Assembly: GCA_964600985.1 (NCBI GenBank)
Contig: CAZRJR010000002.1
Location: 104,867-168,866, forward strand
DNA: 64,000 nucleotides
Reading direction: 5' to 3'
Source: an uncultured Candidatus Saccharibacteria bacterium
GTDB lineage: Bacteria > Patescibacteriota > Saccharimonadia > CAILAD01 > JADZBC01
Shown: positions 4,586 to 39,545 of the stretch, in pieces
Numbering within the stretch: position 1 is the first letter of the stretch
How the letters are laid out: every line of letters begins with the position of its first letter
The notes under the pieces: model-generated
Databases searched by the model: none
What the model was told of the DNA's origin: nothing
Seen by the model: only the letters and a program-made list of their open reading frames with translations
Program-made: the position numbers and the translations under genes

Positions 4586-4591
4586 TATAAT
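4586..4591 (+). promoter_or_regulatory. -10 hexamer TATAAT 6 nt upstream of the dnaG ATG (leaderless arrangement)
   Basis: The sequence is TATAAT-acttgt-ATG(4598). The AAGGAG at 4575 is 17 nt from that ATG, too far to act as an SD. Confidence 0.45.
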
Positions 4592-4597
4592 ACTTGT

Positions 4598-6352
4598 ATG
4601 GACGAAGTGGCAGAGATCAAGCAGAAGTTGGATATTGTAGACGTGATTGGCGGTTACATACAGCTCAAACCAGCCGGCCGCAACCTAAAGGCGCTTTCGC
4701 CATTCCACGCCGAAAAAACCCCGAGCTTCATGGTGAGCCCCGACAAGGGAATATGGCATGACTTCTCGACCGATGAAGGTGGCGATATATTTACCTTCGT
4801 GATGCGTATAGAGGGTGTGAGCTTTCCCGAAGCACTCGAGATACTAGCTAAGCGCGCCGGAGTAACACTTAAACCGCGCGGCAAGGCCAGCCACGGCCCA
4901 GCTAAAGGTAAGCTATTCGAGATTATGGAGTTGGCGGTAAAGTACTATCATGTATCTCTATCGCGCAACCCCGAGGCGCTGAATTATTTGCGTGAAGCTC
5001 GGGGCTTAAGCGCACAGACAATCAAAGACTTTAGCCTCGGCTATGCGCCACAAAGCTGGGATGCGCTCACGGGGTTCTTGCGTAAAAAGAACTTTAGTTA
5101 TGAGCAGATGGTGCAAGCAGGCGTGGCTGCACAAAAGCAAGCTAGTAGGAGCGCTTACGACCTTTTTCGGGCGCGTGTGTTGTTTCCAATATATGACAAT
5201 CAAGCCCGCCCAGTCGGCTTTAGTGGCCGGGTACTACCGGGCGACGAGTCGGGTGCTAAATACATAAACACTCCTCAGACAGCCATTTACAATAAGAGCA
5301 CAGCGATTTATGGTCTCACGCAGGCGAAAGAGGCTATTCGCGAGCACGACGAAGTGGTGATTGTGGAAGGGAATATGGATGTGGTGGCGCTGCACAACGC
5401 TGGGTTTGCGCAAGTAGTGGCTTGTAGTGGCACAGCGCTTACTAGTGAACAGCTAAAAGTGTTGTCTCGCCTAACTAAGAATATTAAAATCTGCTTTGAT
5501 CAGGACGCCGCGGGAGTAAAAGCCGCTCAGCGTGCAATCGAGTTGGCCCAGGGAATCGATATTAAGCTTGAGGTGGTTACGTTCGAGGGTGCTAAAGACC
5601 CTGATGAGCTTATTAGTAAAGACAAGGCTGCGTGGCTGAGTGCCGTGTCGGGCGCGTGCTACGCAGTAGACTACTTGTTTGACTATGCCAAAGCGAGCTT
5701 TGGTACAGCGTCGGCTAGCGCCAAGAAAGACATGAGTAGCTTTTTAATGCCAACCCTGCGTAAGCTCGAAGATACAGTGGAGCAAGACCACTATATAAAG
5801 CGTTTAAGCGAAGAGCTAGGTGTGAGCGAAGATTCGGTGCGACGTAAGGTGAATAGTGAGGATGCGCCCGCACCGGAACCTAGGCCAACTCAGTCAGAGC
5901 AAGCAGAGGCGTCAAATCAGCACCCCGCTCGACAGCTAACCAAAATTGAACAGGCCGAGCAGAACCTACTTAAGCTCATGTTGGCTTACCCGCAGGCTCG
6001 CGTGGCTTTGGGTGATGTAGTATTGGAATCAGTTAGTACAGAACACCGGCCATACTTTGCAGCCTTGAAGACTCACCCTAATTCAAAGCTAGAAACTATT
6101 GCAAAACACTTGCATGCTCATGAAAATGATGTTAAAATTCTTGCGTTAAAGGGTGAAGAAGAATACTCCGGACTGACGGAGCACGACATTGGGCTCGAAG
6201 CCTACACCCAAGTGCATAGATTGCAAAAACTAAATCGAGAATTGAATAAGCGACGGTTAGCAAAGCAGATTGCCGAGGCTGAAGCCGCTGGAGACCGAGA
6301 GGGCGTTAAAAGCCTTTTGGCAGATTATCAGGCACTACTAAACGAGGAGTAA
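4598..6352 (+). CDS. dnaG: DNA primase
   Basis: It has the CHC2 zinc finger (CPFHAEKTPSF), the Toprim motif EGNMDVVAL and a C-terminal helicase-interaction domain. An alternative GTG start lies at 4580. Confidence 0.92.
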   Translation: MDEVAEIKQKLDIVDVIGGYIQLKPAGRNLKALSPFHAEKTPSFMVSPDKGIWHDFSTDEGGDIFTFVMRIEGVSFPEALEILAKRAGVTLKPRGKASHGPAKGKLFEIMELAVKYYHVSLSRNPEALNYLREARGLSAQTIKDFSLGYAPQSWDALTGFLRKKNFSYEQMVQAGVAAQKQASRSAYDLFRARVLFPIYDNQARPVGFSGRVLPGDESGAKYINTPQTAIYNKSTAIYGLTQAKEAIREHDEVVIVEGNMDVVALHNAGFAQVVACSGTALTSEQLKVLSRLTKNIKICFDQDAAGVKAAQRAIELAQGIDIKLEVVTFEGAKDPDELISKDKAAWLSAVSGACYAVDYLFDYAKASFGTASASAKKDMSSFLMPTLRKLEDTVEQDHYIKRLSEELGVSEDSVRRKVNSEDAPAPEPRPTQSEQAEASNQHPARQLTKIEQAEQNLLKLMLAYPQARVALGDVVLESVSTEHRPYFAALKTHPNSKLETIAKHLHAHENDVKILALKGEEEYSGLTEHDIGLEAYTQVHRLQKLNRELNKRRLAKQIAEAEAAGDREGVKSLLADYQALLNEE

Positions 6353-6358
6353 TACTTT

Positions 6359-7480
6359 ATGGCAAAAAAGGCTTTGCCTGTGGCTGCGGCTGGTCCAAAG
6401 GACGATAAGCAAGAGCAGACACCCGAGATAGAACGATTATTGGCCAAGGGCCGTGAACAAGGATTTGTAACCCAACAGGAAGTGCTAGCAGCAGTTCCTG
6501 AAGCAGAAGAAAACGTAGAGGCGCTTGACGATTTATACTCTACGCTCATGGAACAGGGAATCGATGTAACCGACCAGAAGGATAAATTGATCTGGGAAAC
6601 TGAGCCGGAAGAAGACATAGAAAATGCTGTAAACGATGCAACACTCAAAGACATTGCCGACGACTCAGTTCGCTTGTATTTGCGCGAAATTGGTAAGATT
6701 CCACTTATAACCGGCGCCGACGAAGTGGCTCTGGCCAAGCGAATAGAGAAGGGCGACAAGGCTGCTAAAGACGCATTGGCGGAAGCCAATATGCGTTTGG
6801 TGGTGAGTATTGCCAAAAAGTACATTGGCCGTGGACTCGACTTGCTTGACTTGATTCAAGAAGGTAACACTGGGCTTTTGCGCGCGGTTGAGAAGTTTGA
6901 TTACACTAAGGGCTTTAAGTTCAGTACCTATGCCACATGGTGGATCCGCCAGGCAATTACCCGTGCTATAGCCGATCAGGCTCGCGTAATTCGAATTCCG
7001 GTACACATGGTGGAAACTATTAACAAGCTTGTGCGCACGCAGCGTCGACTTACTATGGAGCTTGGCCGCGAACCACTCCCCGAGGAGCTGGCTAAAGAGC
7101 TCGAGATTGATGTAGACAAGGTAAATCACATTATTAAAATCTCGCAGGATACTACCAGTCTAGACGCTACTGTGGGCGAGGACGAAGACTCAAGCCTAGG
7201 TGACTTCATAGAAGACGAGAACAATGTGAGCCCAGAAGAGGCCGCAACTTACGAGTTGCTTAAGGAGCACATAGACGAAACCCTTTCACTCCTAACGCCC
7301 CGTGAGCAAAAGATTTTGCGTATGCGCTTTGGGCTTGAGACCGGCCGAGGTCACACGCTCGAAGAAGTCGGACAGGAGTTTGGTGTAACTCGTGAACGTA
7401 TTCGCCAGATCGAAGCTAAGGCTTTGGCAAAACTGCGTAAGCATAAAGACGCCAAGAAGCTCCGCGACTATTTAGGGTAG
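6359..7480 (+). CDS. rpoD: RNA polymerase primary sigma factor (sigma-70 family)
   Basis: Region 2 reads [56 protein letters not shown]. Regions 3 and 4 are present. It follows dnaG in the classic operon order. Confidence 0.93.
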
Positions 7481-7498: not shown

Positions 7499-7535
7499 CA
7501 CTAAAAGAGCCTAATTATTGGGCTCTTTTAGATTT
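7499..7535. terminator. Bidirectional intrinsic terminator between the convergent rpoD and the minus-strand hypothetical gene
   Basis: AAAAGAGCC taattattg GGCTCTTTT carries A/T tracts on both sides. Confidence 0.6.
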
Positions 7536-7871
7536 CCAGTCAGGATTGAGCTCCCCAAGCTCATCAAAGTCGCCCTCATTTGGTATTGGCTGAGACTGGC
7601 GGCTCTGTATCATAGTACTGCTGTCTGGCCGATCTATGGATGATAGTTTTGCTCTTGCTGCTTCAAGCCCCTCTTTGCCCATTGCAGCTGCTCTTTCGGC
7701 GTCTGTTACTCTCCATTCCGGCTGGCTAGTCGGACCTGGAACGACGTTAAGGTGCCTGCGCCTTTTACCTTTTTCTATAGCCTCAACATAGGCTTCTTCG
7801 TCTAAGTGGGGATCGCGTGGTCGCGGAACTTCGCCTGTTGGCTCGGATGGAAAAAGCTCAGGGTTACTCAT
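7515..7871 (-). CDS. Hypothetical protein
   Basis: The ORF extends to 7979, where it would overlap the polA start. An internal ATG at 7871 (MSNPELF...) is preceded by TTTAAT-N6 on the minus strand and is the probable start. No known motifs were recognised. Confidence 0.4.
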   Translation of the reverse strand: MSNPELFPSEPTGEVPRPRDPHLDEEAYVEAIEKGKRRRHLNVVPGPTSQPEWRVTDAERAAAMGKEGLEAARAKLSSIDRPDSSTMIQSRQSQPIPNEGDFDELGELNPDWKSKRAQ

Positions 7872-7904: not shown

Positions 7905-7910
7905 TATAAT
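7905..7910 (+). promoter_or_regulatory. -10 hexamer TATAAT 6 nt upstream of the polA ATG (leaderless arrangement)
   Basis: The sequence is TATAAT-atcctt-ATG(7917). A divergent TTTAAT-N6-ATG for the minus gene sits at 7883..7871. Confidence 0.45.
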
Positions 7911-7916: not shown

Positions 7917-10688
7917 ATGAGTCAACGCAAAAAACTCGTACTCTTCGACGGCCATGCGCTTCTGCACCGGGGTTACCACGCCATCCCATACCTCTCGACC
8001 AAGGATGGTACACCCACGAACGCTGTATATGGATTTGTGACCATTATGCTTAAAGCCCTGAGCGACATTAAGCCTGATTATGTCGCAGTGGCTTGGGATT
8101 TACCCGGTAAGACCTTTCGCCATGACATGTACGCAGACTATAAAGGCACGCGCAAAAAGACCGACGACGAGTTGGTTGCGCAAATGCCCCTCACGCGCGA
8201 GGTAGTACAGGCGTTTAATATGCCGCTGATGGAGTGCGAAGGCTACGAGGCCGACGATGTAATTGGTACGCTTGCACATCGCTATTGCCGAGAGTGCGAG
8301 GTGGTGATTGTAACGGGGGACATGGATGAGCTTCAGCTAGTAGACGATCACGTGAGTGTGTATACCATGCGACGCGGCTTTAGCGACACGGTACTGTATG
8401 ACCGCGCGGCAGTACAAGAAAAGTACGGGGTAACGCCCGAAGAGTTTGTGGTTTATAAAGCGCTCAAGGGAGACACTAGTGACAACATACCGGGCGTGCC
8501 GGGTGTAGGAGATAAAACGGCAACCGAGCTGGTGGCCAAGTACAAAACGCTTACGGGAATTTATGAGCACTTGGGTGAGCTCAAGCCGGCTGTACGCAAG
8601 AAGCTCGAGGAAAATAAAGATCTTGCTGAGCTTAGCTTGGAACTCTCACGTATCAGCCGAGACGTGAAGCTCGACTTTAACTTGCGGGACGCTCACATCC
8701 ACGACTATGACAAAGAGCGCGTGTTCGAGCTATTTAATCGCTTGGAATTCCGTAGTTTGCTTTCCAAGTTGCCGGGCCACAATATGGTGAGCACAATACT
8801 TGATCAGAATGCCGACCAGGCAACCTTATTTGCTGACGAAGATAAGGCTGCGCCAGTGCCTGCACCAAGCAGAGACCATCTTAAAAAGGCTACCTACATA
8901 TGCGTAGATACGACCGAGAAACTCAAGGACTTAGCCACACAACTTAGCCGGCAAAAGGCCTTTGCATTTGATACCGAAACGGATAGTGTGGATGTAATAA
9001 ACGCCAACTTAGTCGGCATGAGTTTTAGTTGGAAGCCCGGCTACGCTTACTATGTTCCGGTGGGGCACGCCGAAGGTAAACAGCTACCGCTCAAAGAAGT
9101 TATAGATACGCTCGGCCCGATTTTAGCGGACGCTAAGATTGGTAAGGTAGGGCATAACATTAAGTTTGACTACCAAGTGACGAAGCGGCAGGGCGTAGAC
9201 CTAGGGCCCATTAGCTTTGACACTATGGTGGCGGCGTTCTTGCTTAGTCCAATTGGTCGAGCTCAGTCGCTCAGTACGCTGGCATTTGCCGAACTGGGTA
9301 TACAAATGGTCGAAATTACTGAGCTGATTGGGCCCAAAGGTAAGAACCAAAAGACGTTTGCGCAGGCGCCAGTAGAAGAAGCGGCGGTGTATGCGGCCGA
9401 AGACGCCGATATAACTTGGCGACTGTACGAGAAACTGTCTAAACAGTTGGCTGGCGAAGGTAAACTTGAGGATGTAGCAAAGACTATGGAGTGGCCGCTC
9501 ATACCTGTGCTAGGGGACATGGAATGTGCTGGCATAGAGCTAGACGTGGACTTCCTAACCAAGTTTGCCAAAGACATTAATGGCCGCCTGACCAAAATAG
9601 AGGGACAAATTTGGGACTTGGCTGGCGAGAAGTTCAACATCGCCTCTACTCAACAACTCAAAGTTATACTGTTCGACAAGCTCAAGATCCAATCAACTGA
9701 GCTAAAAAAGATCAAAACTGGCGTGTCGACTGCGGCCAAAGAACTTGAGAAGCTTCGTGGCGTGCACCCGATCATTGACTTGTTGTTCGAATACCGTGAG
9801 TCGGCCAAGCTCAAGTCTACTTATGTGGACGCCCTGCCGTTACTCGTGAATCCAACTACCAGCCGTGTTCATACCAGTTACAACCAAACCATTGCACAAA
9901 CAGGCCGGCTGAGCTCCACTAATCCAAACTTGCAGAACATCCCGGTCCGTACCGAATTGGGGCGCGAAATCCGCAAGGCGTTTGTGGCCGCCAAAGACAA
10001 AGTACTTGTAGCGGCAGACTACAGCCAGATCGAACTGCGGCTGGCGGCCGAACTGGCCGACGACAAGCCGATGATCAAGGCCTTTAAGAGCGGGGCCGAC
10101 ATCCACACACTAACTGCCGCAGAGATGTTTGGGGTGGAACCAGGCGAAGTTACTAAACAACAGCGCTATGGCGCTAAAACCATTAATTTTGGGGTACTGT
10201 ATGGCATGAATCCGCATGGCTTAAGTCAGGCTACGGGCATGGACTACGCGGAGTCCAAAGCATTTATAGACCGTTACTTTGAGCTCAGAAAAGATGTAGC
10301 GGCCTATATTGAAAAGATCAAAAAGCAAGCTCATACTTTAGGATATACCGAGACACTATTTGGTCGACGCAGACCGTGCCCAGACGTGCATGCAAGTAAC
10401 TTTGTGGTGCGTTCGGCGGCCGAGCGAGCTGCGGTAAATATGCCACTGCAGGGTACCGCGGCCGATATGATGAAGCTTGCTATGATCAAAATTCATGGGG
10501 ACTTGCCTGAGGGTGCGCAAATGCTTTTGCAGATTCATGACGAACTTATTGTGGAGTGCGGTCAAGATCAGGTACAGGCTGTAGCCGAAGTGCTGCGGCG
10601 AGATATGTTGGGTGTACACAGCTTTGGCGTACCGATCGAGGTGAATATATCAACGGGTCCGAGCTGGGGAGAGTTGGTCGAGCTATGA
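7917..10688 (+). CDS. polA: DNA polymerase I (5'-3' exonuclease, 3'-5' exonuclease and polymerase domains)
   Basis: The N-terminus is MSQRKKLVLFDGHALLHRGYHA, the exo motif is FAFDTETDS and the polymerase motifs are RRxAKxxNFGxxYG and QIHDELIVE. The 7806 extension in the ORF track is rejected. Confidence 0.93.
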   Translation: MSQRKKLVLFDGHALLHRGYHAIPYLSTKDGTPTNAVYGFVTIMLKALSDIKPDYVAVAWDLPGKTFRHDMYADYKGTRKKTDDELVAQMPLTREVVQAFNMPLMECEGYEADDVIGTLAHRYCRECEVVIVTGDMDELQLVDDHVSVYTMRRGFSDTVLYDRAAVQEKYGVTPEEFVVYKALKGDTSDNIPGVPGVGDKTATELVAKYKTLTGIYEHLGELKPAVRKKLEENKDLAELSLELSRISRDVKLDFNLRDAHIHDYDKERVFELFNRLEFRSLLSKLPGHNMVSTILDQNADQATLFADEDKAAPVPAPSRDHLKKATYICVDTTEKLKDLATQLSRQKAFAFDTETDSVDVINANLVGMSFSWKPGYAYYVPVGHAEGKQLPLKEVIDTLGPILADAKIGKVGHNIKFDYQVTKRQGVDLGPISFDTMVAAFLLSPIGRAQSLSTLAFAELGIQMVEITELIGPKGKNQKTFAQAPVEEAAVYAAEDADITWRLYEKLSKQLAGEGKLEDVAKTMEWPLIPVLGDMECAGIELDVDFLTKFAKDINGRLTKIEGQIWDLAGEKFNIASTQQLKVILFDKLKIQSTELKKIKTGVSTAAKELEKLRGVHPIIDLLFEYRESAKLKSTYVDALPLLVNPTTSRVHTSYNQTIAQTGRLSSTNPNLQNIPVRTELGREIRKAFVAAKDKVLVAADYSQIELRLAAELADDKPMIKAFKSGADIHTLTAAEMFGVEPGEVTKQQRYGAKTINFGVLYGMNPHGLSQATGMDYAESKAFIDRYFELRKDVAAYIEKIKKQAHTLGYTETLFGRRRPCPDVHASNFVVRSAAERAAVNMPLQGTAADMMKLAMIKIHGDLPEGAQMLLQIHDELIVECGQDQVQAVAEVLRRDMLGVHSFGVPIEVNISTGPSWGELVEL

Positions 10689-11253: not shown

Positions 11254-11910
11254 TTATTCTTCTGGCTCGAGTCGGAATGGTCGATTATGTATGTAATATT
11301 CACTGATTTCATTTTCTGACTCTAGCCTCTGCAAAATTGGTATAACATCCGCAAACTCCTGGTTGGCTGTTCCGACTGGCGGAAGCTGGCTTAGGTGCAC
11401 TTCGTTTTTACGTTGCTCTTCTGATCGAGCAGTTCGGGCTACTTGTGCGCGTTGCTTGTCAAAGAAGCTTAGCTCGTCCCATGTTGGGTCAGGTAGCCCT
11501 TTTATATTCGATGGGTCGTAGGTCTCTCGGTGAGTTGACTGCGAATACGAATGAAGCTCGGTTTTGGCTTCGGCCGCCGCTGGCCTACTGGTGTCGAGGA
11601 AATACGAACGACTAATTTGCGCTAGGTCGTCGGCACCCTGAGGTTCAGGCACTTCGTGTACGGTGACAGTATACATGTTGAGCTCTCGAATGCCATGGGG
11701 TGACCACTGCCTAGTTACGAGTATAAGCGCGTTGGTAACTACATCTCGGTACCAACGCGCACCTAGGTAGTCGCTTTGCGTACCGCCTTCCCAATCGGGC
11801 TTTGCCAGCCGCTCGACTTCTTGGGTGAACTGTTCAACTACAGCGGGTTCTAGCTCTGCACCCTTTGGCAACGGTTCGTTATCGGGGTAGTGTCTGAATT
11901 CACCTGTCAT
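11254..11910 (-). CDS. Hypothetical protein
   Basis: The ORF extends to 11934. The ATG at 11910 (MTGEFRHYPD...) has TATACT-N6 upstream. No family was recognised. Confidence 0.45.
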   Translation of the reverse strand: MTGEFRHYPDNEPLPKGAELEPAVVEQFTQEVERLAKPDWEGGTQSDYLGARWYRDVVTNALILVTRQWSPHGIRELNMYTVTVHEVPEPQGADDLAQISRSYFLDTSRPAAAEAKTELHSYSQSTHRETYDPSNIKGLPDPTWDELSFFDKQRAQVARTARSEEQRKNEVHLSQLPPVGTANQEFADVIPILQRLESENEISEYYIHNRPFRLEPEE

Positions 11911-14214: not shown

Positions 14215-14229
14215 GTTACAATATAAGGT

Positions 14230-15159
14230 ATGATACTTTTCTTTTACGGTGAAAACAGCTACGCTATGCGGCGCGAGGTGGAGCGACTTCGTGAGCATTA
14301 CACTAAAAAATCCGGCGACGATATGAACCTCGAGGTTATCGACATGAGCGAATCATCAGTTGGTACATTGCTCGATAGTTTGGCCGTAATGCCGCTATTG
14401 GCTAGTAGTAGATTCATAATTTTGCGCGGGCTAGGCGGCAACAAGCAGGCGGTAGAGAAACTCCAAGATATTCTCGACGCAGTGCCGGACTCCACCATCC
14501 TACTAATTGAGGAGCCGACAGTCGATAAGAGAAGTACGTACTTTAAGACTTTATCTAAGCTCAGGCAGGCTAAGGAGTTTAAAAGCCTCAGTGATGCTCA
14601 GCTGCGCGATTGGATAGTAAAGGAGACAAAGCGATTAGGCGGCAATATTGCGCCAGGGCTTGCTATGAGCTTGCTGCGGCGAGTGGGCAATGACCAGTGG
14701 CAGTTGGCCCAGGAGGTGCAAAAGCTCGTGGCCTACGACCCTACAATTACTCAGGACTCGATTGACCTACTGGTGACTGCCAACACTGAGCAGACATTAT
14801 TTGAACTAACTGACGCAGTAGTGCTTGGTAATCTCGCCCGCGCTATGGATGTGTACGCGGCGCTTGCACGGCAAGGTGTGGCCGATCAGCAAATTCTAGC
14901 TATGCTCGTTACTCAGTATCGCAACATCACTCTGGCCTTTGACAATGCAGGGCAGGGCAGCTCGTGGATGGACCAATTCGGTATAAAGCCGTACCCGGCC
15001 GAGAAAGCAGCACAAGTAGCTAGTAAGCTAGCCCTGAGCGACCTTAAACGAGCGTACCGGCTGATAGTAGAGGCGGATTATAGTGTTAAAACCGGCGCAG
15101 CAGAGAGTAGCGCTGCTATGCAAGACCTCATAATTGCACTGTGCCGTCAGGAGGGGTAG
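14230..15159 (+). CDS. holA: DNA polymerase III delta subunit
   Basis: The size, the N-terminal YGENSY-type clamp-loader start and the overall delta-subunit pattern all fit. Confidence 0.6.
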   Translation: MILFFYGENSYAMRREVERLREHYTKKSGDDMNLEVIDMSESSVGTLLDSLAVMPLLASSRFIILRGLGGNKQAVEKLQDILDAVPDSTILLIEEPTVDKRSTYFKTLSKLRQAKEFKSLSDAQLRDWIVKETKRLGGNIAPGLAMSLLRRVGNDQWQLAQEVQKLVAYDPTITQDSIDLLVTANTEQTLFELTDAVVLGNLARAMDVYAALARQGVADQQILAMLVTQYRNITLAFDNAGQGSSWMDQFGIKPYPAEKAAQVASKLALSDLKRAYRLIVEADYSVKTGAAESSAAMQDLIIALCRQEG

Positions 15160-18244: not shown

Positions 18245-18250
18245 TATACT
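18245..18250 (+). promoter_or_regulatory. -10 hexamer TATACT 6 nt upstream of the truB ATG (leaderless arrangement)
   Basis: TATACT-gtagct-ATG(18257). Confidence 0.4.
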
Positions 18251-18256: not shown

Positions 18257-18904
18257 ATGAACGGCAAAACTGTTACTGGCGAGGGCGTATGGTTGGTGCA
18301 CAAGCCACGAGGTATGAGCTCGTTTGGTGTGGTGGCACGGGTACGTCGGCTAACTGGCATACGCAAGGTAGGCCATGCCGGTACACTCGACCCACAGGCT
18401 GAAGGGCTAATGATCATATTGGTCGGCAAAGACTATACGCGTCAGGCGGATAGCTTTTTGAAGCTAGGCAAAGAGTACGTGGCTGAGGCTACGCTGGGTT
18501 TAACAAGCTCCACAGGGGATAGTGAGGGCGAATTGACCAAAACCTCGCCCAAACAACCGACTCGAAGTGAAGTAGCTGCTGTACTCAAGAGCTTCGAGGG
18601 CGACAGCTTGCAAACGCCGCCTGCCTACTCGGCCATTAAGGTAGCGGGCCAACGAGCTTACAAACTCGCTCGAGCTGGTAAAGAGGTGACTCTAGAGCCG
18701 CGCAAGGTGCACATTGGCGCCATGGAGCTCATCGACTACACATACCCCAAGCTAACCTTTCGAGCGCAGGTATCGAGCGGCACGTACGTACGGAGTTTGG
18801 TCGAGGATATTGGTTCGCAGCTCGGTACTGGCGCCTATATGAGCGCACTCACCAGGACGCAAATTGGCGAGTATAAACTAGCGGACGCTAGCTGTATTGA
18901 TTAG
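18257..18904 (+). CDS. truB: tRNA pseudouridine(55) synthase
   Basis: It has the GMSSFGVVARVRRLTGIRKVGHAGTLDP catalytic Asp motif. Confidence 0.9.
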   Translation: MNGKTVTGEGVWLVHKPRGMSSFGVVARVRRLTGIRKVGHAGTLDPQAEGLMIILVGKDYTRQADSFLKLGKEYVAEATLGLTSSTGDSEGELTKTSPKQPTRSEVAAVLKSFEGDSLQTPPAYSAIKVAGQRAYKLARAGKEVTLEPRKVHIGAMELIDYTYPKLTFRAQVSSGTYVRSLVEDIGSQLGTGAYMSALTRTQIGEYKLADASCID

Positions 18905-18934
18905 TAGGGCAGAATCTGCTATATTGTGTAGGCA

Positions 18935-19201
18935 ATGTTACAAACTACAGAGAAGAAATCACTCATAAAGACACACGCTGTGCACGGCAAAGACACTGGT
19001 TCGGCCGAGGTTCAGATTGCTTTATTTACCGAAAAGATTAAGCAGCTTACGGAACACCTTAAGGTTCATAAGGGGGACAATCACTCCCGTCGTGGCTTGC
19101 TAGCTATGGTAAGTAAGCGCCGTCGTTTGCTTGATTACTTGCAGAAGAAAGACGCCAAACGCTACGAAGCTATCGTGGCCAAGCTTAAGTTACGTCGCTA
19201 G
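18935..19201 (+). CDS. rpsO: 30S ribosomal protein S15
   Basis: It has the [25 protein letters not shown] motif, encodes 88 aa and lies upstream of pnp. Confidence 0.92.
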
Positions 19202-24590: not shown

Positions 24591-24645
24591 GGTACGACTT
24601 TAGCTGAGCTAAGGTACCTTGCAAGGATAAAATAGTCAAGGTTTA

Positions 24646-24693
24646 GTAATGTGCTCTCCAGCTGTAAGAGCGTGCATTACTGGACCTTGTTTT
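24646..24693 (+). terminator. Leader hairpin plus U-tract, a candidate attenuator upstream of the small high-GC gene
   Basis: AGTAATGTGCTCT ccagctgtaa GAGCGTGCATTACT followed by GGACCTTGTTTTAA. Confidence 0.35.
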
Positions 24694-24747
24694 AACTCAA
24701 GGGATCAGTGAGTTCGCCCCAAAACCCAAAGACCCAGGAGGTCAAAA

Positions 24748-25029
24748 GTGGCGAAAGATAAGCTGCCGGTTCGTGTGCGCATTCCCGGCACGGACTACTT
24801 CGTCTGGCGTGAGGCCGAGGGCGAGAAGCAGTGTACGCACTGCCGAGTAACTCGGAGTTGCCTCTTTTCCTACGACGACAGCTGCAAGCCGTTCTGCAAC
24901 ATCCGCCACTGGATGATGCATGTGGTTTGCCAGTACGGAGTCGGCGGGAGTCGCATGGAGGACGAGACGGGCAAGCGGCCGCGTCGCCCCAAGCGTCGCC
25001 ACCTGACCGTGGCTGCCCACGCAAGCTGA
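24748..25029 (+). CDS. Small Cys-rich protein in a high-GC patch
   Basis: AGGAGG-N6-GTG. The 93-aa product has 6 Cys (CTHC...C...C...C...C). The gene is followed by a UUCG-tetraloop hairpin. Confidence 0.4.
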   Translation: MAKDKLPVRVRIPGTDYFVWREAEGEKQCTHCRVTRSCLFSYDDSCKPFCNIRHWMMHVVCQYGVGGSRMEDETGKRPRRPKRRHLTVAAHAS

Positions 25030-25032
25030 TCG

Positions 25033-25054
25033 GTGGGGGCCTTCGGGCCCCCAC
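25033..25054 (+). terminator. 9-bp GC hairpin with a TTCG loop and no U-tract
   Basis: GTGGGGGCC ttcg GGCCCCCAC. Confidence 0.4.
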
Positions 25055-25129
25055 ACAGCTCACTCAACCTTACATTCTATCCTTGCTTCTTCCCAAGTTC
25101 TCGAACCATCCGAGGCCTTAGGAGGAATG

Positions 25130-26878
25130 TTACAACTTTACTTTGCCGCTGGCGGACTGTAAGTCAAACAGCTTTTTGTATAGTCCAGTTTGGTTAATAA
25201 GCTCAGCGTGATTACCGCGCTCGGCTACCTTGCCTCCTTTGAGTACTAAGATCTCATCTGCATGCATAATTGTGCTCAGGCGGTGAGCAATTACGAGAGC
25301 ACTACGGCCAGCCATAAGCTTCTTGAGGCCATCTTGCACGAGGCGCTCAGACTCACTATCGAGAGCGCTGGTAGCTTCGTCTAGGATGATAAGCTGCGGA
25401 TCTTTGAGTATGGCGCGCGCAATTGCTATACGCTGCTTTTGCCCGCCAGAGAGCTTTACGCCACGCTCGCCCACGAGCGTTCTGTACTTTTTGGGTAGCT
25501 CGCTAATAAACTCGTCGGCGTGCGCTTGCTTGGCAGCGTGGATTATATTTTCCTTGCTGGCGCGCGCATTGGCCATGGCAAGGTTTTCTTGCACCGTAGC
25601 GTTAAACAGTGCCACGTCTTGCATGACCATGCCGATGTGTTGGCGAATGCTATCGGCCGTAAAGTCGCTTATGTCTTGACCATTAATGAGTATTTCGCCC
25701 TCAGTTGGCTCATAGAATCGTAACAACAGCTTGGTAATGGTAGATTTGCCAGTTCCGCTGGGGCCGACTAGTGCAACTGTCTTGTCGCCTTCGATCTTAA
25801 AGCTAATGTTATGTATTGCGCCCTTCTTACTGTCGGGGTAGGCGAAGCTCACGTTTTTAAACTCAATACTTTCGAGCGAGACAAGCGGCAAGGCATCGGC
25901 GCGGTCTACGATGGTTGGCTTAGTCTCTAAAATCTCAATCAACAGTCCTGCCGACACATCTGCTTCAGTTGTACTTTGCAGTATCCGCGCTATTGGATTG
26001 ATTGAGTTGGTAAGGTTTGACGCAAAATATGCAAATACAAAGATATCGGCAGGGGACAACTTACCATATATAGCCGAGAAGGTAGCGATTGCAATGGCAA
26101 CTACTCGATAGAAGTCCCCAAGCGCATCACGTGCTGTGTTGTAACGGCGCTGAATCTGGTTTGTGGTGTTGGAAAGGGTTAATACCTCTTCGTGATATTT
26201 CTGGTATCTGGTCTTAATGCGTGTTTCAGCTGAGAGAGATTTGACCATGGCTAGGTTAGAGATCGTCTCTGCCAATAGTCCTGAAGACTTGCTGCCAGCT
26301 TCTTGCCAATCCTTTATAAGTGGCTTCGTTAGCCTTGCCTTTCTTACTACCAAGAAAACCATGAGTGGGCCGAATAATAGAAGAAAGGTAAGTCCGGCCA
26401 CGACACTGCTCTTAAATATAACAATAAGTGCTATAACCATGAACGCGATGTTCGAAATAGTGTAAATAGCATTAAACAGCCAGTTGCGGAACTGAGAAAC
26501 TCCTTCGTTGATTTTCTGCATAATTTTGCCAGCACCTTGGTGCTCTGTGTGCGACGGCGAAAGTTCTAAGACTAAGTCCATTACTCGCGTCCTGACTTTA
26601 TATGCAACATCAATTCCAAGCCGATCTTGATATTTCTCCTGGAAGAATGTTGCGATATTACCTATTAATCCTGCAACGACCAGTACGAGTAGCCATACTA
26701 TTACGTCTGGGGTAACTTGTCCTTTGCTAGCTACTTTACTAATAATTGTGATGATTTGCTTAACCACGAGCGGCGTTAGCGCCTGCATAGCAGCAACAAG
26801 TGTACTTACAATCACAACAACCACGAGCTTCCAGAGGTAGTTATCTAGGTATTTATAGAGTTTAAATAAGTTCTTCAC
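25130..26878 (-). CDS. ABC transporter, fused permease/ATPase (MsbA-like exporter)
   Basis: It has 6 TM helices, Walker A GPSGTGKST, the signature LSGGQKQRIAIARAIL and Walker B LILDEATSALD. It has a GTG start. Confidence 0.9.
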   Translation of the reverse strand: MKNLFKLYKYLDNYLWKLVVVVIVSTLVAAMQALTPLVVKQIITIISKVASKGQVTPDVIVWLLVLVVAGLIGNIATFFQEKYQDRLGIDVAYKVRTRVMDLVLELSPSHTEHQGAGKIMQKINEGVSQFRNWLFNAIYTISNIAFMVIALIVIFKSSVVAGLTFLLLFGPLMVFLVVRKARLTKPLIKDWQEAGSKSSGLLAETISNLAMVKSLSAETRIKTRYQKYHEEVLTLSNTTNQIQRRYNTARDALGDFYRVVAIAIATFSAIYGKLSPADIFVFAYFASNLTNSINPIARILQSTTEADVSAGLLIEILETKPTIVDRADALPLVSLESIEFKNVSFAYPDSKKGAIHNISFKIEGDKTVALVGPSGTGKSTITKLLLRFYEPTEGEILINGQDISDFTADSIRQHIGMVMQDVALFNATVQENLAMANARASKENIIHAAKQAHADEFISELPKKYRTLVGERGVKLSGGQKQRIAIARAILKDPQLIILDEATSALDSESERLVQDGLKKLMAGRSALVIAHRLSTIMHADEILVLKGGKVAERGNHAELINQTGLYKKLFDLQSASGKVKL

Positions 26879-26919
26879 GTTTCTTAACTTTAGGCTAAGC
26901 GCTTATATTTGACAAGTCT

Positions 26920-26947
26920 TGTAATCATTGCATGACTGTGCTATAAT
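26920..26947 (+). promoter_or_regulatory. Sigma-70-like promoter in the ABC/ftsK divergent region
   Basis: TTGTAA-16 nt-TATAAT. It overlaps an opposite-strand TTGTCA...TAAAGT. Confidence 0.4.
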
Positions 26948-27006
26948 GGATTCAACATGAGGGTGAATCATGACCAAACTATCTAGTACCATGCGGCCGG
27001 AGCGCT

Positions 27007-27012
27007 TATAAT
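27007..27012 (+). promoter_or_regulatory. -10 hexamer TATAAT 6 nt upstream of the ftsK ATG (leaderless arrangement)
   Basis: TATAAT-aagcta-ATG(27019). Confidence 0.45.
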
Positions 27013-27018: not shown

Positions 27019-29136
27019 ATGGCTAAACGCAATATAAAAAAGCAAAAGGCAAAGCCGCTTAAGGAGCCCGCTCAGCTTGTCTCGCACGAGGCTAAGCGTG
27101 AGATCGTAGCAATTCTGCTGATTACTCTAGCAATATTCTTAATCATAGCCATGGTTGGGTTTGCTGGTAGCTTGGGTAACTGGGTGCTTATGGCTATGCG
27201 CTTTGTGCTAGGACTATCGGTATTTGTGCTGCCGTTTGCCTTGCTACTCATTGCATGGGTGCTGTTCCAACCCGATAAGTATGAGTTTAAGGCCAATAAC
27301 TTGTTTGGCGCTATCTTTACTTTCGTATGCTTGGCAGGCCTAGCGCACCTTATATTTGCTCCCGACTCGGTAAACTTTAGCAACGTCGGCTCGGGTGGTG
27401 GGCTAGTGGGTATGGGCCTAAGCGCCGCTATGCTACCGATTCTCAATAAGCCAGTGTCTATCTTTATTCTCATAGCACTCTTACTAATCAGCTTGGTAGT
27501 AGCTGCGAATACGCGGGTCAAGGATTTATTTAAGAGCTTCTTATTATTGTTTCACCGCGAGCGCAACAGCGAAGGCGAGCTGGTAGAAGAGCCCAAGTTT
27601 CAGATCAATAACAAGCTGCCCATAAAGGGTAGTGTGGGCGAAGATGACGCACCTGAACCGAAGAAGAAAGAGGCGAGTGTAATGCTATCGTCTGCCGACA
27701 AAGACTGGGTGTACCCACCACTTGATTTGGTCAAAGCTACCTCTACCCAGGCCGATCCAGGTGACGCTAAGGCCACTGCAAAAGTAATTAAAGACACCTT
27801 TGCCGACTTTGGCTACGAGGTGGCTATGGATGCGGTAGATGTAGGTCCAACTGTGTCGCAGTATAGCCTTAAGCCGCCTACTGGAGTGAATCTGAATAAA
27901 ATCACGGCGCTTGATCGCAACTTAGCCCTAGCACTCGAGGCTGAGCAAATTCGCATAGAAGCGCCGATTCCAGGCAAAAGCCTGGTAGGAATTCAGGTGC
28001 CAAACAAAAAGTCGGCCCAAGTACGCCTAGGTGACATCCTGGCCTCCAAAGAAATCGCTGGCAAGGGCACCAAGCTTACTTTTGTACTGGGCCGCGATGT
28101 CAGTGGTGAGATTATTGTGGCGGACTTAGGCAAAGCTCCGCACTTGCTGGTGGCTGGTGCTACGGGTGCTGGTAAGTCGGTTATGATTAACACACTCATA
28201 ACGAGCCTGTTGTATCGTAATTCACCTTCCGAAATGAAGCTGATTTTGGTCGATCCCAAGCGTGTTGAGCTTGGCTTGTACCACGACATCCCACATCTGC
28301 TTACTCCAGTGATCGTAGAACCAACTCAGGCGATCTCGGCGCTCAAGTGGGCAGTGGCAGAAATGGATCGACGCTATAGACTCCTGCAAGATCACGGCAA
28401 GCGTGGCATTGATGAGTTCAACGCCCAAAAGGATGTAGATAGTATGCCGTACATTGTGATTGTAGTGGACGAGTTCGCTGATCTTATGATGGTAGCAGGC
28501 AAGGATGTAGAGGCACTAATTCAGCGACTTACGCAGATGGCTCGTGCGGTCGGCATTCACCTGGTACTCGCTACCCAGCGCCCAAGCGTGAACGTAATTA
28601 CCGGTATCATTAAGGCAAACGTTCCAACGCGCATTGCGCTTACTACGGCGAGTCAGGTGGATTCGCGCACTATTATAGAAATGGCTGGCGCCGAGAAGCT
28701 GCTGGGTAAGGGTGATATGTTATTTGCCAGTCCGAGCTTCATTAAGCCCAAGCGCGTACAGGGTGTGTGGCTGAGCGAAGAAGAAGTAACCGGCGTGGCG
28801 GAGTTCTTGCGCAAGGCACGCGAACCGGAGTACAACGAAGAAGTGTTGGCCCAATCAGTCCGTATAAAGGGTATGGCAGGTGGCGGCGGTGACTTTGATG
28901 CTGGTGAAGACGCATTGTTTAACGAAGCTGCCGAAGTCACCATTCAGGCTGGCAAGGCCTCGGCTTCGCTCTTGCAACGCCGATTGAAGGTTGGCTATGC
29001 TCGCGCAGCTCGACTTATGGACATGCTCGAGGAACAAGGTGTGGTTGGCCCGGCCGATGGCGCCAAGCCACGGGAAGTATTGATTAGTAGTGTGGATGAA
29101 CTAAGTGGTGGAGGTGGTGGTGACGCCGAGGAATAA
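27019..29136 (+). CDS. ftsK: DNA translocase FtsK/SpoIIIE
   Basis: It has N-terminal TM helices, Walker A GATGAGKSV and a gamma winged-helix domain. Confidence 0.92.
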   Translation: MAKRNIKKQKAKPLKEPAQLVSHEAKREIVAILLITLAIFLIIAMVGFAGSLGNWVLMAMRFVLGLSVFVLPFALLLIAWVLFQPDKYEFKANNLFGAIFTFVCLAGLAHLIFAPDSVNFSNVGSGGGLVGMGLSAAMLPILNKPVSIFILIALLLISLVVAANTRVKDLFKSFLLLFHRERNSEGELVEEPKFQINNKLPIKGSVGEDDAPEPKKKEASVMLSSADKDWVYPPLDLVKATSTQADPGDAKATAKVIKDTFADFGYEVAMDAVDVGPTVSQYSLKPPTGVNLNKITALDRNLALALEAEQIRIEAPIPGKSLVGIQVPNKKSAQVRLGDILASKEIAGKGTKLTFVLGRDVSGEIIVADLGKAPHLLVAGATGAGKSVMINTLITSLLYRNSPSEMKLILVDPKRVELGLYHDIPHLLTPVIVEPTQAISALKWAVAEMDRRYRLLQDHGKRGIDEFNAQKDVDSMPYIVIVVDEFADLMMVAGKDVEALIQRLTQMARAVGIHLVLATQRPSVNVITGIIKANVPTRIALTTASQVDSRTIIEMAGAEKLLGKGDMLFASPSFIKPKRVQGVWLSEEEVTGVAEFLRKAREPEYNEEVLAQSVRIKGMAGGGGDFDAGEDALFNEAAEVTIQAGKASASLLQRRLKVGYARAARLMDMLEEQGVVGPADGAKPREVLISSVDELSGGGGGDAEE

Positions 29137-35275: not shown

Positions 35276-35800
35276 TTAGGCGGTATGCTTGGGCAAGGGT
35301 ATGGTTAGTGGTTTGTGCGCTCGATTCTCAAGGTCACGTACGGTGATAGTAGATCCCTCAATGTTTACCACGTCACCATGGTCAATCATTTGCTCTTGTT
35401 GTAAGGGGTTACCAAATAGGCCAGCAGCTACGTAAAGCTTACCGATTACCCAGTTTGAGTCTTCAATAGCAAAGTTGGTAACTTTGCCAAGCCGCTTGCG
35501 ACTTTCGGTAATTACTTTGCAGCCCAAAGGATTAAAGTTGCGATTAATGACATCTTGGTGGCGCAGTAGATCTTCTGCCTCGGACAACTTTTCTTCGGCA
35601 TCGATTATGAGTCGATCGTTGGTAATGAACCGAATATCGCCAGGCAGCAAGTACGCCAATCCCTTTGGGTCCTGTATGGTGAGCAGCTCGGTTGCTAAAT
35701 TATCTGGGTTGATTACCAACCCAACAACCTTGCCGCAGGGGAAGCCAGACTGAACGCTCGCTACCGTAAGGCCTATAAAGTGATCACGTAAATGAAGCAT
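35276..35800 (-). CDS. Tandem PRC-barrel domain protein
   Basis: It has two PRC-barrel-like repeats. The start ATG at 35800 (MLHLRDHF) is preceded by TATAAT-N6 at 35807-35812 on the minus strand. Confidence 0.5.
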   Translation of the reverse strand: MLHLRDHFIGLTVASVQSGFPCGKVVGLVINPDNLATELLTIQDPKGLAYLLPGDIRFITNDRLIIDAEEKLSEAEDLLRHQDVINRNFNPLGCKVITESRKRLGKVTNFAIEDSNWVIGKLYVAAGLFGNPLQQEQMIDHGDVVNIEGSTITVRDLENRAHKPLTIPLPKHTA

Positions 35801-36803: not shown

Positions 36804-36812
36804 GAGATATTA

Positions 36813-38098: not shown

Positions 38099-38381
38099 TG
38101 GCCGACCAGTAGCCTTTTTTATAGCCCTTACCGCAAACTTCATCGATAGTCTTGCCCTCGGGTATGTAGTCGCACATAACCTGTTCGCAATCCTTGCCAC
38201 TGGTTGCTTCGCACTCAGCTTGGGTGGGGTAGAATGATACGCTTTGCACAGTGGCCACATCGGTATCAATTGATCCCGTGGGAGTTAAGTCGTTTTGGCG
38301 CTTAAGATATATGTTTGTGGCAAATGCTGTGATTACTAATAGGCCCCCAGCTACCATAACGATGAGAAGATTACGCTTCAT
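38088..38381 (-). CDS. Small secreted or membrane-anchored Cys-rich protein
   Basis: Signal/TM MKRNLLIVMVAGGLLVITAFA is followed by ECEATSGKDCEQVMCD...VCGKGY (5 Cys). Confidence 0.4.
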   Translation of the reverse strand: MKRNLLIVMVAGGLLVITAFATNIYLKRQNDLTPTGSIDTDVATVQSVSFYPTQAECEATSGKDCEQVMCDYIPEGKTIDEVCGKGYKKGYWSAITR

Positions 38382-38391
38382 ACTAGCTAGC

Positions 38392-39468
38392 TTAGCTGCT
38401 AAACCGAAACACCACAACGTCACCATCGTGCATTACGTAGTCTTTGCCTTCTAGGCGAGTCTTACCGGCGGCCTTGGCTTCGGAAAATCCGCCTGCGGCT
38501 ACTAAATCATCATAACCAGTTATTTCGGCTTTTATAAATCCTTTTTCAAAATCCGTGTGGATCACTCCGGCCGCCTGTGGGGCTGTGGCGCCAATTGGGA
38601 TGGTCCAGGCACGTGATTCTTTGGGTCCGCTGGTAAAATACGTTTGCAAACCAAGTATGCTAAAACCAATTTGAATAAGGCTATCAAGTCCACTTTGCTT
38701 TTGGCCTAGGCTCTCGAGTAACTCACGTGCTTCTTGGTCAGGCAAGTCTTGCAGTTCCGCTTCGATTTTGGCGCACAGAAACACGCTAGGGGAACCGCCT
38801 GCCAGCTTTTTTAGTTCAGACTGCTTGGTGATATCGCTGAGTCCTGCTTCATCTACATTAAACACATATATGAATGGCTTGGCGGTCAGAAGCTGGAGGT
38901 CTTGAATGGATTCAGGCAACTCTTTGTAGGCGTGACTAATGAGCTCGCCTTGATCTAGCTTGCTACAAATGTTTTCTAGTTCATTAATAGTGGCATTAGC
39001 TTTGGGGTTGGTCTTGGCTTCGCGCCGCGTTGTGTCAATTCGCTTCTGTAGGGTGGCAATATCGGCCAGGCATAGTTCGGTCTTGATGGCGTCTATATCA
39101 TCTTTTGGGTCGACCCTGCCTTCTACATGGACCACATCGTCGTCTACGAAGGCTCGCACTACTTGTACAATGGCGTTAGTCTCGCGGATGTTAGCCAGGA
39201 ACTTATTACCCAGCCCGGCGCCCTCGGAAGCGCCGCGGACTATGCCGGCAATATCCACGAACGTAACAGCGGCAGGAATTATGTTGATTGACGCCGATAG
39301 CTCAGCGAGCTTATTTAACCGTGCGTCGGGTACACCAACCACGCCTACGTTTGGTTCAATGGTGGCAAAGGGGTAGTTGGCGGCTAAGGTGTTATTTTTA
39401 GTAAGGGCATTAAATAGCGTTGACTTGCCCACGTTGGGTAGCCCGACTATGCCAAGGGAAAGACTCAT
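38392..39468 (-). CDS. ychF: Ribosome-binding ATPase YchF (Obg-like)
   Basis: It has the G1 motif [15 protein letters not shown] and a TGS domain. On the minus strand TATAAT(39475-39480)-N6-ATG places it in the leaderless set. Confidence 0.9.
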
Positions 39469-39545
39469 GCATACATTATAGCAAGATGTGCTTGATAATA
39501 TTAAGCGTTACAACTATAGTGTTACCATAAGCCTTTTATATCTAC

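Follow-up and report, generated by a model that had tools for sequence, protein, structure and literature searches.

Candidate leaderless genes with a −10-like hexamer six nucleotides before the ATG in Saccharibacteria

Described leaderless systems and the Saccharibacteria window

Genes expressed without a leader are a familiar feature of Deinococcus and the Actinobacteria. Leaderless mRNAs of E. coli and phage (lambda cI, Tn1721 tetR) carry a 5′-terminal AUG, and their translation depends on that AUG and not on a Shine-Dalgarno (SD) sequence. The leaderless starts of M. tuberculosis have a Pribnow box 6–8 nt away, and among the group C bacteria, to which 5.6% of proteobacterial species belong, 25–50% of operons are leaderless (PMC6028130). 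For Deinococcus deserti, 167 of the 262 genes with mapped transcription start sites (TSSs) are given as leaderless, an arrangement that led to the correction of annotated starts (de Groot 2014, as summarised in PMC6028130). The usual distance between the −10 element and the TSS is 7 bp (PMC12641261). Within the Saccharibacteria, the one TSS set found cited is that for N. lyticus TM7x, which was derived from RNA-seq coverage and whose −10-to-TSS distances are described as variable; the preprint of the TM7x RNA-seq study (PMID 35975994) makes no mention of TSSs, and no report of leaderless expression in the phylum was found in the literature.

The window, by which we mean the whole 64,000-nucleotide stretch analysed, belongs to an uncultured Candidatus Saccharibacteria bacterium (TM7, Patescibacteria/CPR), and its gene identities were confirmed by Pfam domain matches. 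A preliminary description had listed eight genes with a −10-like hexamer exactly 6 nt before the ATG and no SD in between. All eight sites are present, and none of the eight genes (0/8) has an SD core within 3–16 nt upstream of its ATG. Two further members, holA and pilM, have a spacer of 7 nt.

dnaG, 4598–6352, forward strand; TATAAT at 4586–4591, N6, ATG at 4598
Divergent hypothetical gene (7871 gene), 7515–7871, reverse strand; TGTGc followed by TTTAAT at 7883–7878, N6, ATG at 7871
polA, 7917–10688, forward strand; TATAAT at 7905–7910, N6, ATG at 7917
Hypothetical gene (11910 gene), 11254–11910, reverse strand; TGc followed by TATACT at 11922–11917, N6, ATG at 11910
holA (DNA polymerase III delta), 14230–15159, forward strand; TACAAT at 14217–14222, N7, ATG at 14230
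truB, 18257–18904, forward strand; TATACT at 18245–18250, N6, ATG at 18257
ftsK, 27019–29136, forward strand; proximal TATAAT at 27007–27012, N6, ATG at 27019
PRC-barrel gene, 35276–35800, reverse strand; TATAAT at 35812–35807, N6, ATG at 35800
ychF, 38392–39468, reverse strand; TGc followed by TATAAT at 39480–39475, N6, ATG at 39468
pilM, 42861–43901, forward strand; TGc followed by TAATAT at 42848–42853, N7, ATG at 42861

The classical SDs reported for six other genes of the window were likewise all found: recA (AAGGAG-9), mutM (AAGGAG-5), pnp (AGGAG-4), pilA (AAGGAG-5), ndk (AAGGAG-4) and ssb (AAGGAGG-7).

The best explanation of this arrangement, to which we assign a probability of roughly 0.8, is that the genes are expressed as leaderless mRNAs, or as mRNAs with leaders of 1–2 nt, that coexist with those of SD-led genes. 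We infer that the hexamers are sigma-70-type −10 elements, many of which carry an extension (TG, or a G at −14) and most of which lack a good −35, and that RNA polymerase would start from them on the A of the ATG where the spacer is 6 nt and 1–2 nt before the ATG where it is 7–8 nt. The resulting mRNAs would have neither a 5′ UTR nor an SD, so that ribosomes would have to initiate directly on the 5′-terminal AUG, as happens with leaderless mRNAs in Deinococcus and the Actinobacteria. Leaderless genes would make up about one-fifth of the total and would mostly be the first genes of transcription units, with the set in the window consisting mostly of putatively low-abundance housekeeping functions (dnaG, polA, holA, ftsK, truB and ychF), while genes inside operons and those with high expression (recA, ssb, pnp, pilA, ndk and rpsF) would have short leaders with AAGGAG-type SDs.

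Spacing, start codon and sequence context

The exact string TATAAT-N6-ATG occurs six times in the window, against 0.68 ± 0.75 expected from 100 dinucleotide shuffles of the window, none of which reaches six. Of the six matches, five mark true starts of genes, and the sixth falls within mnmG.

mnmG, 56121–58016, forward strand; internal TATAAT-N6-ATG match at 56442..56456, in frame at residue 112

As a gene start the mnmG match was rejected, the GIDA domain beginning at residue 12 of the 56121 ORF, and a single such match fits the chance expectation. The looser pattern TAnnnT-N6-ATG, which had been proposed for an enrichment count, is not enriched in the raw counts for the window (38 matches at N6 versus 15–46 at other spacings) because it is too loose for a single window; the N6 enrichment appears with a stricter hexamer or when only ORF-opening ATGs are counted.

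Beyond the window, the N6 peak is sharp. In a phylum-wide sample of 79 Saccharibacteria species/loci plus the window (1.46 Mb in total), TATAAT-Nk-ATG at the opening of an ORF ≥100 aa long was found 149 times at N6, 64 times at N7 and 34 times at N8, and 1–14 times at each other spacer length. These counts include orthologues and are partly non-independent, as dnaG is the centre of all 79 loci. The codon that follows TATAAT-N6 was ATG in the 149 cases, GTG in two and TTG in two. These sites are spread over 44 distinct protein families, and in 1.0 Mb of control sequence of mixed phylogeny (L080–L159) only 17 N6 sites were counted. When the first ATG of each ORF was taken, N6, N7 and N8 accounted for 221, 71 and 44 of 1322 ORFs, respectively. 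With background subtracted, TAnAnT precedes the first ATG at N6–8 in ~22% of the ORFs ≥100 aa long, and the pattern appears to cover about one gene in five in Saccharibacteria, a class whose size the crude start caller overestimates. Starts led by AAGGAG have a broad spacing of 4–9 nt and also use GTG and TTG. The two modes of initiation put forward in the preliminary description do coexist.

The conserved positions of the hexamer are T1, A2 and T6, together with a TG two bases upstream, which corresponds to the contact pattern of sigma-70. At the population level the −10 is extended (T-15, 67%; G-14, 74–76%), with T-17/A-16 similar to TRTGn. Of the eight window sites, ychF, the 11910 gene and the 7871 gene carry the complete TG; polA, the PRC-barrel gene and truB carry only the G-14, and dnaG and ftsK have neither. 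Near −35 the position frequencies favour T only weakly, and in a two-hexamer −35/−10 scan one of the eight window promoters passes, that of ychF, which has the sole passable −35 (TTAATA, N18), and the other seven fail. A pyrimidine precedes the ATG at ~91–95% of sites (T, 72–73%; C, 19–22%), compared to just 49% in SD-led genes, and with A at +1 fits the Y(-1)R(+1) preference of transcription starts. In the window the string TGnTATAAT also precedes tRNA-Arg and SD-led genes at a greater distance, which argues for a promoter element and not a ribosome-binding site.

The genes with a −10 box at N6–8 have a divergent upstream neighbour more often than the SD-led genes (49% versus 28%; Fisher p = 4e-13) and less often follow a co-directional gene at a gap of ≤25 nt (10% versus 32%). 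The arrangement is enriched at transcription-unit heads, with truB an exception.

Conservation at individual genes and alternative readings

Across the phylum the arrangement is conserved at the orthologues of dnaG, polA, ychF, ftsK, truB and the PRC-barrel gene, while the sequence of the spacer diverges. TAnnnT stands at N6–8 before the ATG in 61 of 74 dnaG orthologues in Saccharibacteria and at N6–7 in 21 of 30 polA orthologues. The ychF orthologues have TATAAT-N6 (L160, L161), TAAAAT-N7 (L163) or TATAAT-N8 (L165), those of the PRC-barrel gene TATACT-N6 (L160, L163, L165) or TATAAT-N11 (L161), and those of truB TATACT-N6 (L168, L169) or CATACT-N6 (L170). For ftsK, an identical TATAATAAGCTAATG is found in L160 amid a diverged spacer region, and L163 has TATAAT-N8-ATG. 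The two additional members follow suit, holA with TACAAT-N7 (L001, L014), TACACT-N7 (L015) or TACACT-N6 (L013), and pilM with TGCTAATAT or TGCTAAAAT 7–9 nt before the ATG (L160, L163, L165) or TATAAT-N7 (L075–L079). The 11910 gene lacks a Pfam match and an orthologue among the compared loci, and its frame is favoured by the codon-usage score.

At dnaG the upstream region contains a strong hairpin.

Hairpin, 4507..4542, forward strand; perfect 16-bp, G+C-rich, followed by a T-rich tract

This hairpin (MFE, −43.2 kcal/mol; z = −3.7), the inverted repeat of which is kept in L003, is probably the intrinsic terminator of a small basic-protein gene (4135–4476), and the dnaG −10 box follows 44 nt downstream, so that initiation of dnaG transcription would be confined to 4543–4598. 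An AAGGAG upstream of the box falls outside the predicted transcript and is absent as a conserved element in L001 and L014. The start codons of polA and the divergent 7871 gene are 45 nt apart, which leaves no room for leaders. The hexamer of the 7871 gene (TTTAAT) is weak, without A at position 2, but TGTGc precedes it, and TGCTTTAAT-N6-ATG recurs unchanged in L001, L002, L003 and L014, where the protein is just 29–34% identical; the codon-usage score of this gene is positive in its own frame only.

A different picture is possible at ftsK and truB, where expression might come mainly from upstream promoters or read-through, in leadered or polycistronic form, with the proximal box silent or minor and the SD-less ATG reached by termination-reinitiation, 70S scanning or an unstructured A/U-rich region.

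ftsK distal promoter, 26919..26947, forward strand; TTGTAA-N17-(TGTGC)TATAAT, also written TTGTAA-N17-TGTGCTATAAT
Upstream ORF of ftsK, 26970–27011, forward strand; 13 codons, after a GAGGGTG SD-like motif

The distal promoter of ftsK is canonical, with 10 of 12 matches and the TG, and lies 60 nt upstream; it is followed by a conserved ATGAGGGTGAA and is nearly invariant across the window, L160 and L163, better conserved than the proximal box, so that an ftsK transcript with a ~65-nt leader may exist too. The 13-codon ORF, whose frame and length are common to the window and L160, terminates at a TAA that falls within the proximal TATAAT and is 7 nt short of the ftsK ATG. The ATG of truB is 18 nt after the stop codon of a DHH-family gene that has a canonical TTGACA-N17-TATTAT promoter and with which truB may be co-transcribed, and in L171 a stop/start overlap (TAAATG) that couples truB to the upstream gene replaces the arrangement. 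Leadered transcripts probably coexist for ftsK and truB. As an account of the whole set, dependence on upstream promoters is nonetheless unlikely, since it is inapplicable to dnaG behind its terminator hairpin and to the closely divergent polA and 7871 genes, and it leaves unexplained the N6 peak, the ATG-only rule, the −1 pyrimidine, the −15/−14 TG and the conservation of the proximal box amid diverging flanks.

It is more doubtful still that the hexamer is a non-SD translation signal in the mRNA, similar to the 'group B' motifs of Bacteroidetes, instead of a promoter. The motif is A/U-rich and at about the distance of a ribosome-binding site, and GeneMarkS at first confused both signals in M. 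tuberculosis; group B motifs, however, precede all genes including operon-internal ones (PMC6028130), whereas in the Saccharibacteria sample the motif does not, being underrepresented where co-directional genes lie close together and overrepresented where the upstream neighbour is divergent. The sigma-70 contact pattern, a spacing fixed to the nucleotide where that of SDs is broad, the exclusion of GTG and TTG starts and the presence of classical AAGGAG SDs in the same genome also speak against a translation signal. Chance coincidence, or mis-called starts with the true ones upstream or downstream, is effectively refuted. Hexamer and N6 together span 12 nt, which in every case keeps the box in frame, to be read as Tyr-Asn or Tyr-Thr, and the four ORF extensions through it noted previously are real (GTG 4580, GTG 7806, TTG 11934 and TTG 35833). 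The match at 56442 is a chance or internal one, and the raw count of the loose pattern gave no enrichment, but the excess of exact matches over the shuffles is not accounted for by chance, and the upstream extensions either overlap the divergent gene (polA) or lack an SD. The ATGs are, judged by domain starts and alignments, the real N-termini: the DnaG zinc ribbon begins at residue 3, the YchF GTPase domain at residue 5 and the PolA 5′-3′ exonuclease domain at residue 6 (Pfam), and orthologues align from residue 1–2. The suggestion that the hexamer be used as a general rule for correcting starts did not hold, as it gives a false positive at mnmG, where it would remove 111 residues including the FAD-binding motif. 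The leaderless reading itself is supported, with all of its predictions that are testable at the sequence level borne out.

Comparison with known leaderless systems

The Saccharibacteria would be an added case of the known GeneMarkS-2 'group C' leaderless pattern, as a −10 box 6–8 nt upstream, no SD, an ATG start and a bias towards transcription-unit heads were all found. Such a pattern is described for Mycobacterium and other Actinobacteria (Cortes 2013 and Shell 2015, as cited in PMC6028130). Shared with the Actinobacteria are the −10 box (TANNNT) 6–8 nt upstream of the start at first genes in operons, the lack of an SD and a weak or absent −35, and SD-led genes coexist in both, with the ~22% of genes predicted to be leaderless here near the 25–50% of operons in group C. 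Unlike the Actinobacteria, the Saccharibacteria belong to the Patescibacteria/CPR, have a G+C of ~50%, a box that approaches the complete TATAAT and is extended by TG or TRTG, and predicted leaderless starts that are almost exclusively ATG, whereas mycobacterial leaderless genes use GTG as well.

With Deinococcus deserti and the Deinococcus-Thermus the Saccharibacteria share a −10 box immediately before the start in a large share of genes; the Deinococcus arrangement has been validated by dRNA-seq and proteogenomics, while that of the Saccharibacteria is based on sequence statistics and conservation. In the archaeal 'group D' transcripts likewise begin on the start codon or beside it, with the promoter at a fixed distance, but its TATA box is ~26 nt upstream (PMC6028130), compared to a −10 box at −12 to −7 in the Saccharibacteria. 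In the putative mRNAs of the Saccharibacteria the AUG would be 5′-terminal, and whereas leaderless mRNAs of the E. coli type are rare exceptions in Proteobacteria, the arrangement here defines a class that is systematic and conserved and to which core replication genes belong.

Leaderless-type starts in the window and across Saccharibacteria

The window (G+C about 50%, positive GC skew) is densely populated by housekeeping genes, mostly on the + strand. Pfam assignments bore out the gene names of the preliminary description (DnaG, PolA, TruB, FtsK, a PRC-barrel protein, YchF, MutM, PNPase, RecA, SSB, NDK and a pilin) and additionally identified RpoD, HolA, PilM and MnmG. The -10-like hexamer reported 6 nt ahead of the ATG (N6, with Nk denoting a spacer of k nt) was found at all eight genes with a spacer of exactly six bases, as TATAAT at five (dnaG, polA, ftsK, the PRC-barrel gene and ychF), TATACT at two (truB and the hypothetical gene with its ATG at 11910) and TTTAAT at one (the hypothetical gene at 7871, divergent from polA). 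The proposed ATGs mark the genuine N-termini, with Pfam domains starting 3–6 residues on and orthologue alignments running from residue 1–2; the frame of the 11910 gene, for which the fetched loci held no orthologue, is supported by codon usage. The Shine-Dalgarno (SD) sequences described for recA, mutM, pnp, pilA, ndk and ssb are likewise present, and the two proposed modes of initiation do coexist, leaderless-type sites standing alongside SD-led genes.

The window contains six exact TATAAT-N6-ATG matches where 0.68 are expected, a count reached by none of 100 shuffles. The looser TAnnnT-N6-ATG, proposed earlier as a test of enrichment, is not enriched in raw window counts taken without an ORF filter (38 at N6, 15–46 at other spacings), so that a stricter hexamer or a filter for ORF-opening ATGs is needed. 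A scan with the DnaG protein, using one genome per GTDB species, yielded 79 loci, nearly all from Candidatus Saccharibacteria/Saccharimonadia/Saccharimonadales (top DnaG identity 79–83%), which assigns the window to a Saccharibacterium (TM7, Patescibacteria/CPR). When TATAAT, a spacer of k nt and an ATG opening at least 100 codons were counted in these loci pooled with the window (1.46 Mb), there were 149 sites at k = 6, 64 at k = 7, 34 at k = 8 and 1–14 at each of the other spacers within k = 2–12, while for GTG and for TTG starts at k = 6 there were two sites each. The 149 N6 sites represent 44 unrelated protein families. Before the first ATG of long ORFs (n = 1322), TAnAnT was found 221 times at N6, 71 at N7 and 44 at N8 over a background of about 15 per offset, from which background subtraction gives about 22% of genes with a -10-N6-8-ATG arrangement; the remaining ORFs have SD cores with a broad peak 4–8 nt upstream of the ATG. 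This value was used instead of the 31% leaderless share from a crude start caller, which mis-called mnmG. A mixed-phylum control of 1.0 Mb of FtsK relatives from metagenomes held only 17 N6 sites. These 80 loci (identity ≤52%), most of them non-syntenic and many apparently from other phyla (strong AGGAGG SDs, 60–70% G+C), were unusable as an orthologue check and served as the mixed control only.

Conservation of the arrangement at dnaG and polA extends from environmental Saccharimonadia to Nanosynbacter-like lineages of the mouth and rumen. At dnaG the spacer and flanks are unconserved, and host-associated clades carry TGnTATAAT-N6-ATG; in the oral and rumen lineages both the dnaG and the polA orthologues have TGgTATAAT-N6-ATG.

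Arrangement ahead of the start codon in orthologues of the window genes (L numbers are fetched loci)
dnaG: TAnnnT at N6-8 before the ATG in 61 of 74 distinct upstream regions; an SD instead in five (e.g. L006, L017)
polA: arrangement in 21 of 30; the rest translationally coupled or SD-led (L041)
ychF: N6, N6, N7 and N8 in four orthologues
PRC-barrel gene: N6 in three, N11 in one
ftsK: N6 and N8
truB: TATACT-N6 in two, CATACT-N6 in one, stop/start overlap in one
7871 gene: TGCTTTAAT-N6-ATG in four relatives, despite protein identity of just 29–34%

Further conserved members are holA (TACAAT-N7) and pilM (TGcTAATAT-N7). The 1871 gene was not counted as an N8 member, since in L003 and L004 it is the distal box, some 23 nt upstream, that is conserved. 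At rpsO (18920-18937, +; also L168-L171) a conserved TGnTAnnnT box lies 9–10 nt before the ATG with no SD, which predicts a 2–3-nt leader for this ribosomal-protein gene. YchF (38392-39468, -) is about 64–66% identical to Actinomycetota YchF (Pseudonocardia, Saccharothrix, Frankiaceae), equal to many Saccharimonadia homologues. YchF has been reported as a regulator of leaderless-mRNA translation (PMC12641178), and its gene is itself of leaderless type here. Long YchF homologues (393–444 aa) were dropped as candidates for starts extended through the box, since most carry internal insertions or duplications rather than N-terminal extensions.

Promoter signature and competing explanations

The N6 sites have T at -15 in 67% and G at -14 in 74–76%; T at -17 and A/G at -16 are over-represented as well, the whole corresponding to the extended -10, or TRTGn, motif. 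Around -35 there is just a weak preference for T, and a scan of the eight sites for classical -35/-10 promoters passed ychF alone. Bacterial transcription start sites (TSSs) favour a pyrimidine at -1 and a purine at +1, and usually lie 7 bp past the end of the -10 box (PMC12641261). Position -1 of the N6 sites is T in 72–73% and C in 19–22%, compared with a pyrimidine in just 49% of SD-led genes, and is a pyrimidine at seven of the eight window sites. Of the N8 sites, 54% have A as the seventh base beyond the box, which suggests that the start is kept seven bases past the box and would leave a 1–2-nt leader. TGnTATAAT also occurs farther upstream of SD-led genes (mutM, the gene at 32166 and a DHH-family gene, whose promoter is TTGACA-N17-TATTAT). 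At tRNA-Arg(CCT) (60839-60944, -), a TGcTATAAT box likewise lies upstream, ending some 24 nt from the mature 5' end, an independent case in which the motif drives a non-coding gene. Its presence before both SD-led genes and this tRNA makes it the general promoter element of the organism.

These features fit leaderless or near-leaderless mRNAs, predicted to arise from -10-dominated promoters beside SD-led genes. Reading the hexamer as a non-SD ribosome-binding motif fails against the TG extension, the restriction to ATG, the single-nucleotide spacing and the position of the sites in operons. According to the crude start caller, the upstream neighbour is divergent for 49% of leaderless-type and 28% of SD-led genes (Fisher p = 4e-13), and is co-directional and ≤25 nt away for 10% and 32%, respectively. 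The other explanation, that upstream promoters dominate expression, is untenable at dnaG, polA and the 7871 gene. At dnaG, 44 nt separate the box from the end of a perfect G+C hairpin of 16 bp that carries a T-rich tail (4507-4542), and the transcription start is thereby confined to within 55 nt of the ATG; polA and the 7871 gene diverge from start codons 45 nt apart, the interval holding two -10 boxes back to back. For ftsK and truB it is a real qualification, given the nearly invariant distal promoter of ftsK and the probable carriage of truB on the transcript of the upstream gene as well.

Local features near dnaG and ftsK
4135-4476 (+): 113-aa very basic ORF with a TTG start, neutral codon-usage score and a hairpin terminator at its 3' side; protein conserved in L003 (43%) and L002 (34%)
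4123-4485 (opposite strand): spurious-looking ORF
24562-25060 (+): perfect consensus promoter TTGACA-N17-TATAAT (12/12), then a leader of about 150 nt without a significant Rfam match (two at E 0.2–0.35, far below gathering scores); AGGAGG-N6-GTG 3' of it opens a 93-aa Cys-rich, G+C-rich ORF (24748-25029), followed by a GGGGGCC/GGCCCCC hairpin
25130-26878 (-): divergent ABC-transporter gene (start region 26878-26915), GTG 8 nt after TAAAGT; in L160, ATG 8 nt after TACTAT
26908-27012 (+): ftsK upstream block, nearly invariant in L160 and L163/L164 too, with, in this order, back-to-back -35 boxes (TTGACAAGTCTTGTAA), TGTGCTATAAT and ATGAGGGTGAA
26919-26947: distal ftsK promoter, TTGTAA-N17-TGTGCTATAAT, followed by conserved ATGAGGGTGAA and short upstream ORFs
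26957-26986: 9-codon ORF beginning 9 nt past the distal -10 box
26970-27011: 13-codon ORF preceded by an SD-like GAGGGTG, its stop codon TAA falling within the proximal TATAAT, 7 nt short of the ftsK ATG; frame and length kept in L160, missing in L163

The ftsK block with its small ORFs may encode a leader peptide or act as a regulatory leader for ftsK. The element at 24562-25060 may represent a novel cis-regulatory leader or else a small gene gained by horizontal transfer, and the ABC-transporter gene is predicted to be near-leaderless in the window genome, from a start codon other than ATG.

Gene starts and their correction

The four ORFs described as extended through the hexamer are all real cases; hexamer and spacer add up to 12 nt, which keeps the box in frame at every site and easily read through (Tyr-Asn or Tyr-Thr). 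The correction rule drawn from them stands in part, as it would truncate MnmG at 56454 in the same window and is therefore usable only where homologue N-termini or domain boundaries back the ATG. The sixth exact TATAAT-N6-ATG (56442-56456, +) is internal to mnmG and in frame with it, at residue 112 of the longer ORF. The FAD-binding GIDA domain of that ORF starts at residue 12, which places the internal match near chance expectation; it is probably a chance match, an internal promoter being the lesser possibility. Public gene callers err in both directions at leaderless-type starts in the fetched relatives: the PRC-barrel orthologue in L163 (13361-14080) is over-extended, at 239 aa versus 174 aa expected, and TruB in L169 (3001-3618) is too short, at 205 aa versus 215 aa, starting 10 codons past TATACT-N6-ATG.

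Proposed leaderless initiation in a wider context

The leaderless mechanism is textbook knowledge in other phyla, and within the CPR it is mainly Saccharibacteria that can be cultivated and are genetically tractable. To our knowledge, almost nothing has been published on their transcription and translation initiation. A full-text search for leaderless genes together with Saccharibacteria, TM7, Patescibacteria, Nanosynbacter or CPR found no description, the matches being mentions in reference lists or papers on YchF, though the species list of GeneMarkS-2 group C, the class with leaderless genes, could name a TM7 genome. A promoter survey that included N. lyticus TSSs inferred from RNA-seq reported variable -10-to-TSS distances and did not discuss leaderless genes (PMC12641261).

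We give a probability of roughly 0.55 to leaderless initiation being a long-conserved, phylum-wide expression mode of Saccharibacteria, serving about one-fifth of genes. It would widen the phylogenetic range of abundant leaderless genes and reveal no new mechanism, its main use being practical, in promoter design and start-codon annotation of CPR genomes. The promoter pattern (TRTGnTATAAT, transcription starting at the seventh base past the box) and the leaderless class would supply design rules for expression constructs, systematic start-codon errors would be implied in CPR MAG annotations, and the class would help to correct gene starts in thousands of MAGs. It also makes a clear prediction for the first dRNA-seq in TM7x or Southlakia. 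If true, it raises the questions of whether the trait is ancestral to the Terrabacteria clade and whether it is tied to the epibionts' reduced translation apparatus or to life on leaderless-rich actinobacterial hosts. Judged from sequence, the pattern of the window and the phylum is that of group C, in which the Pribnow box lies 6–8 nt from the start and 25–50% of operons are leaderless, and which is typical of Actinobacteria (90%) and Deinococcus-Thermus (97%) (PMC6028130); the CPR would then join these leaderless-rich Terrabacteria.
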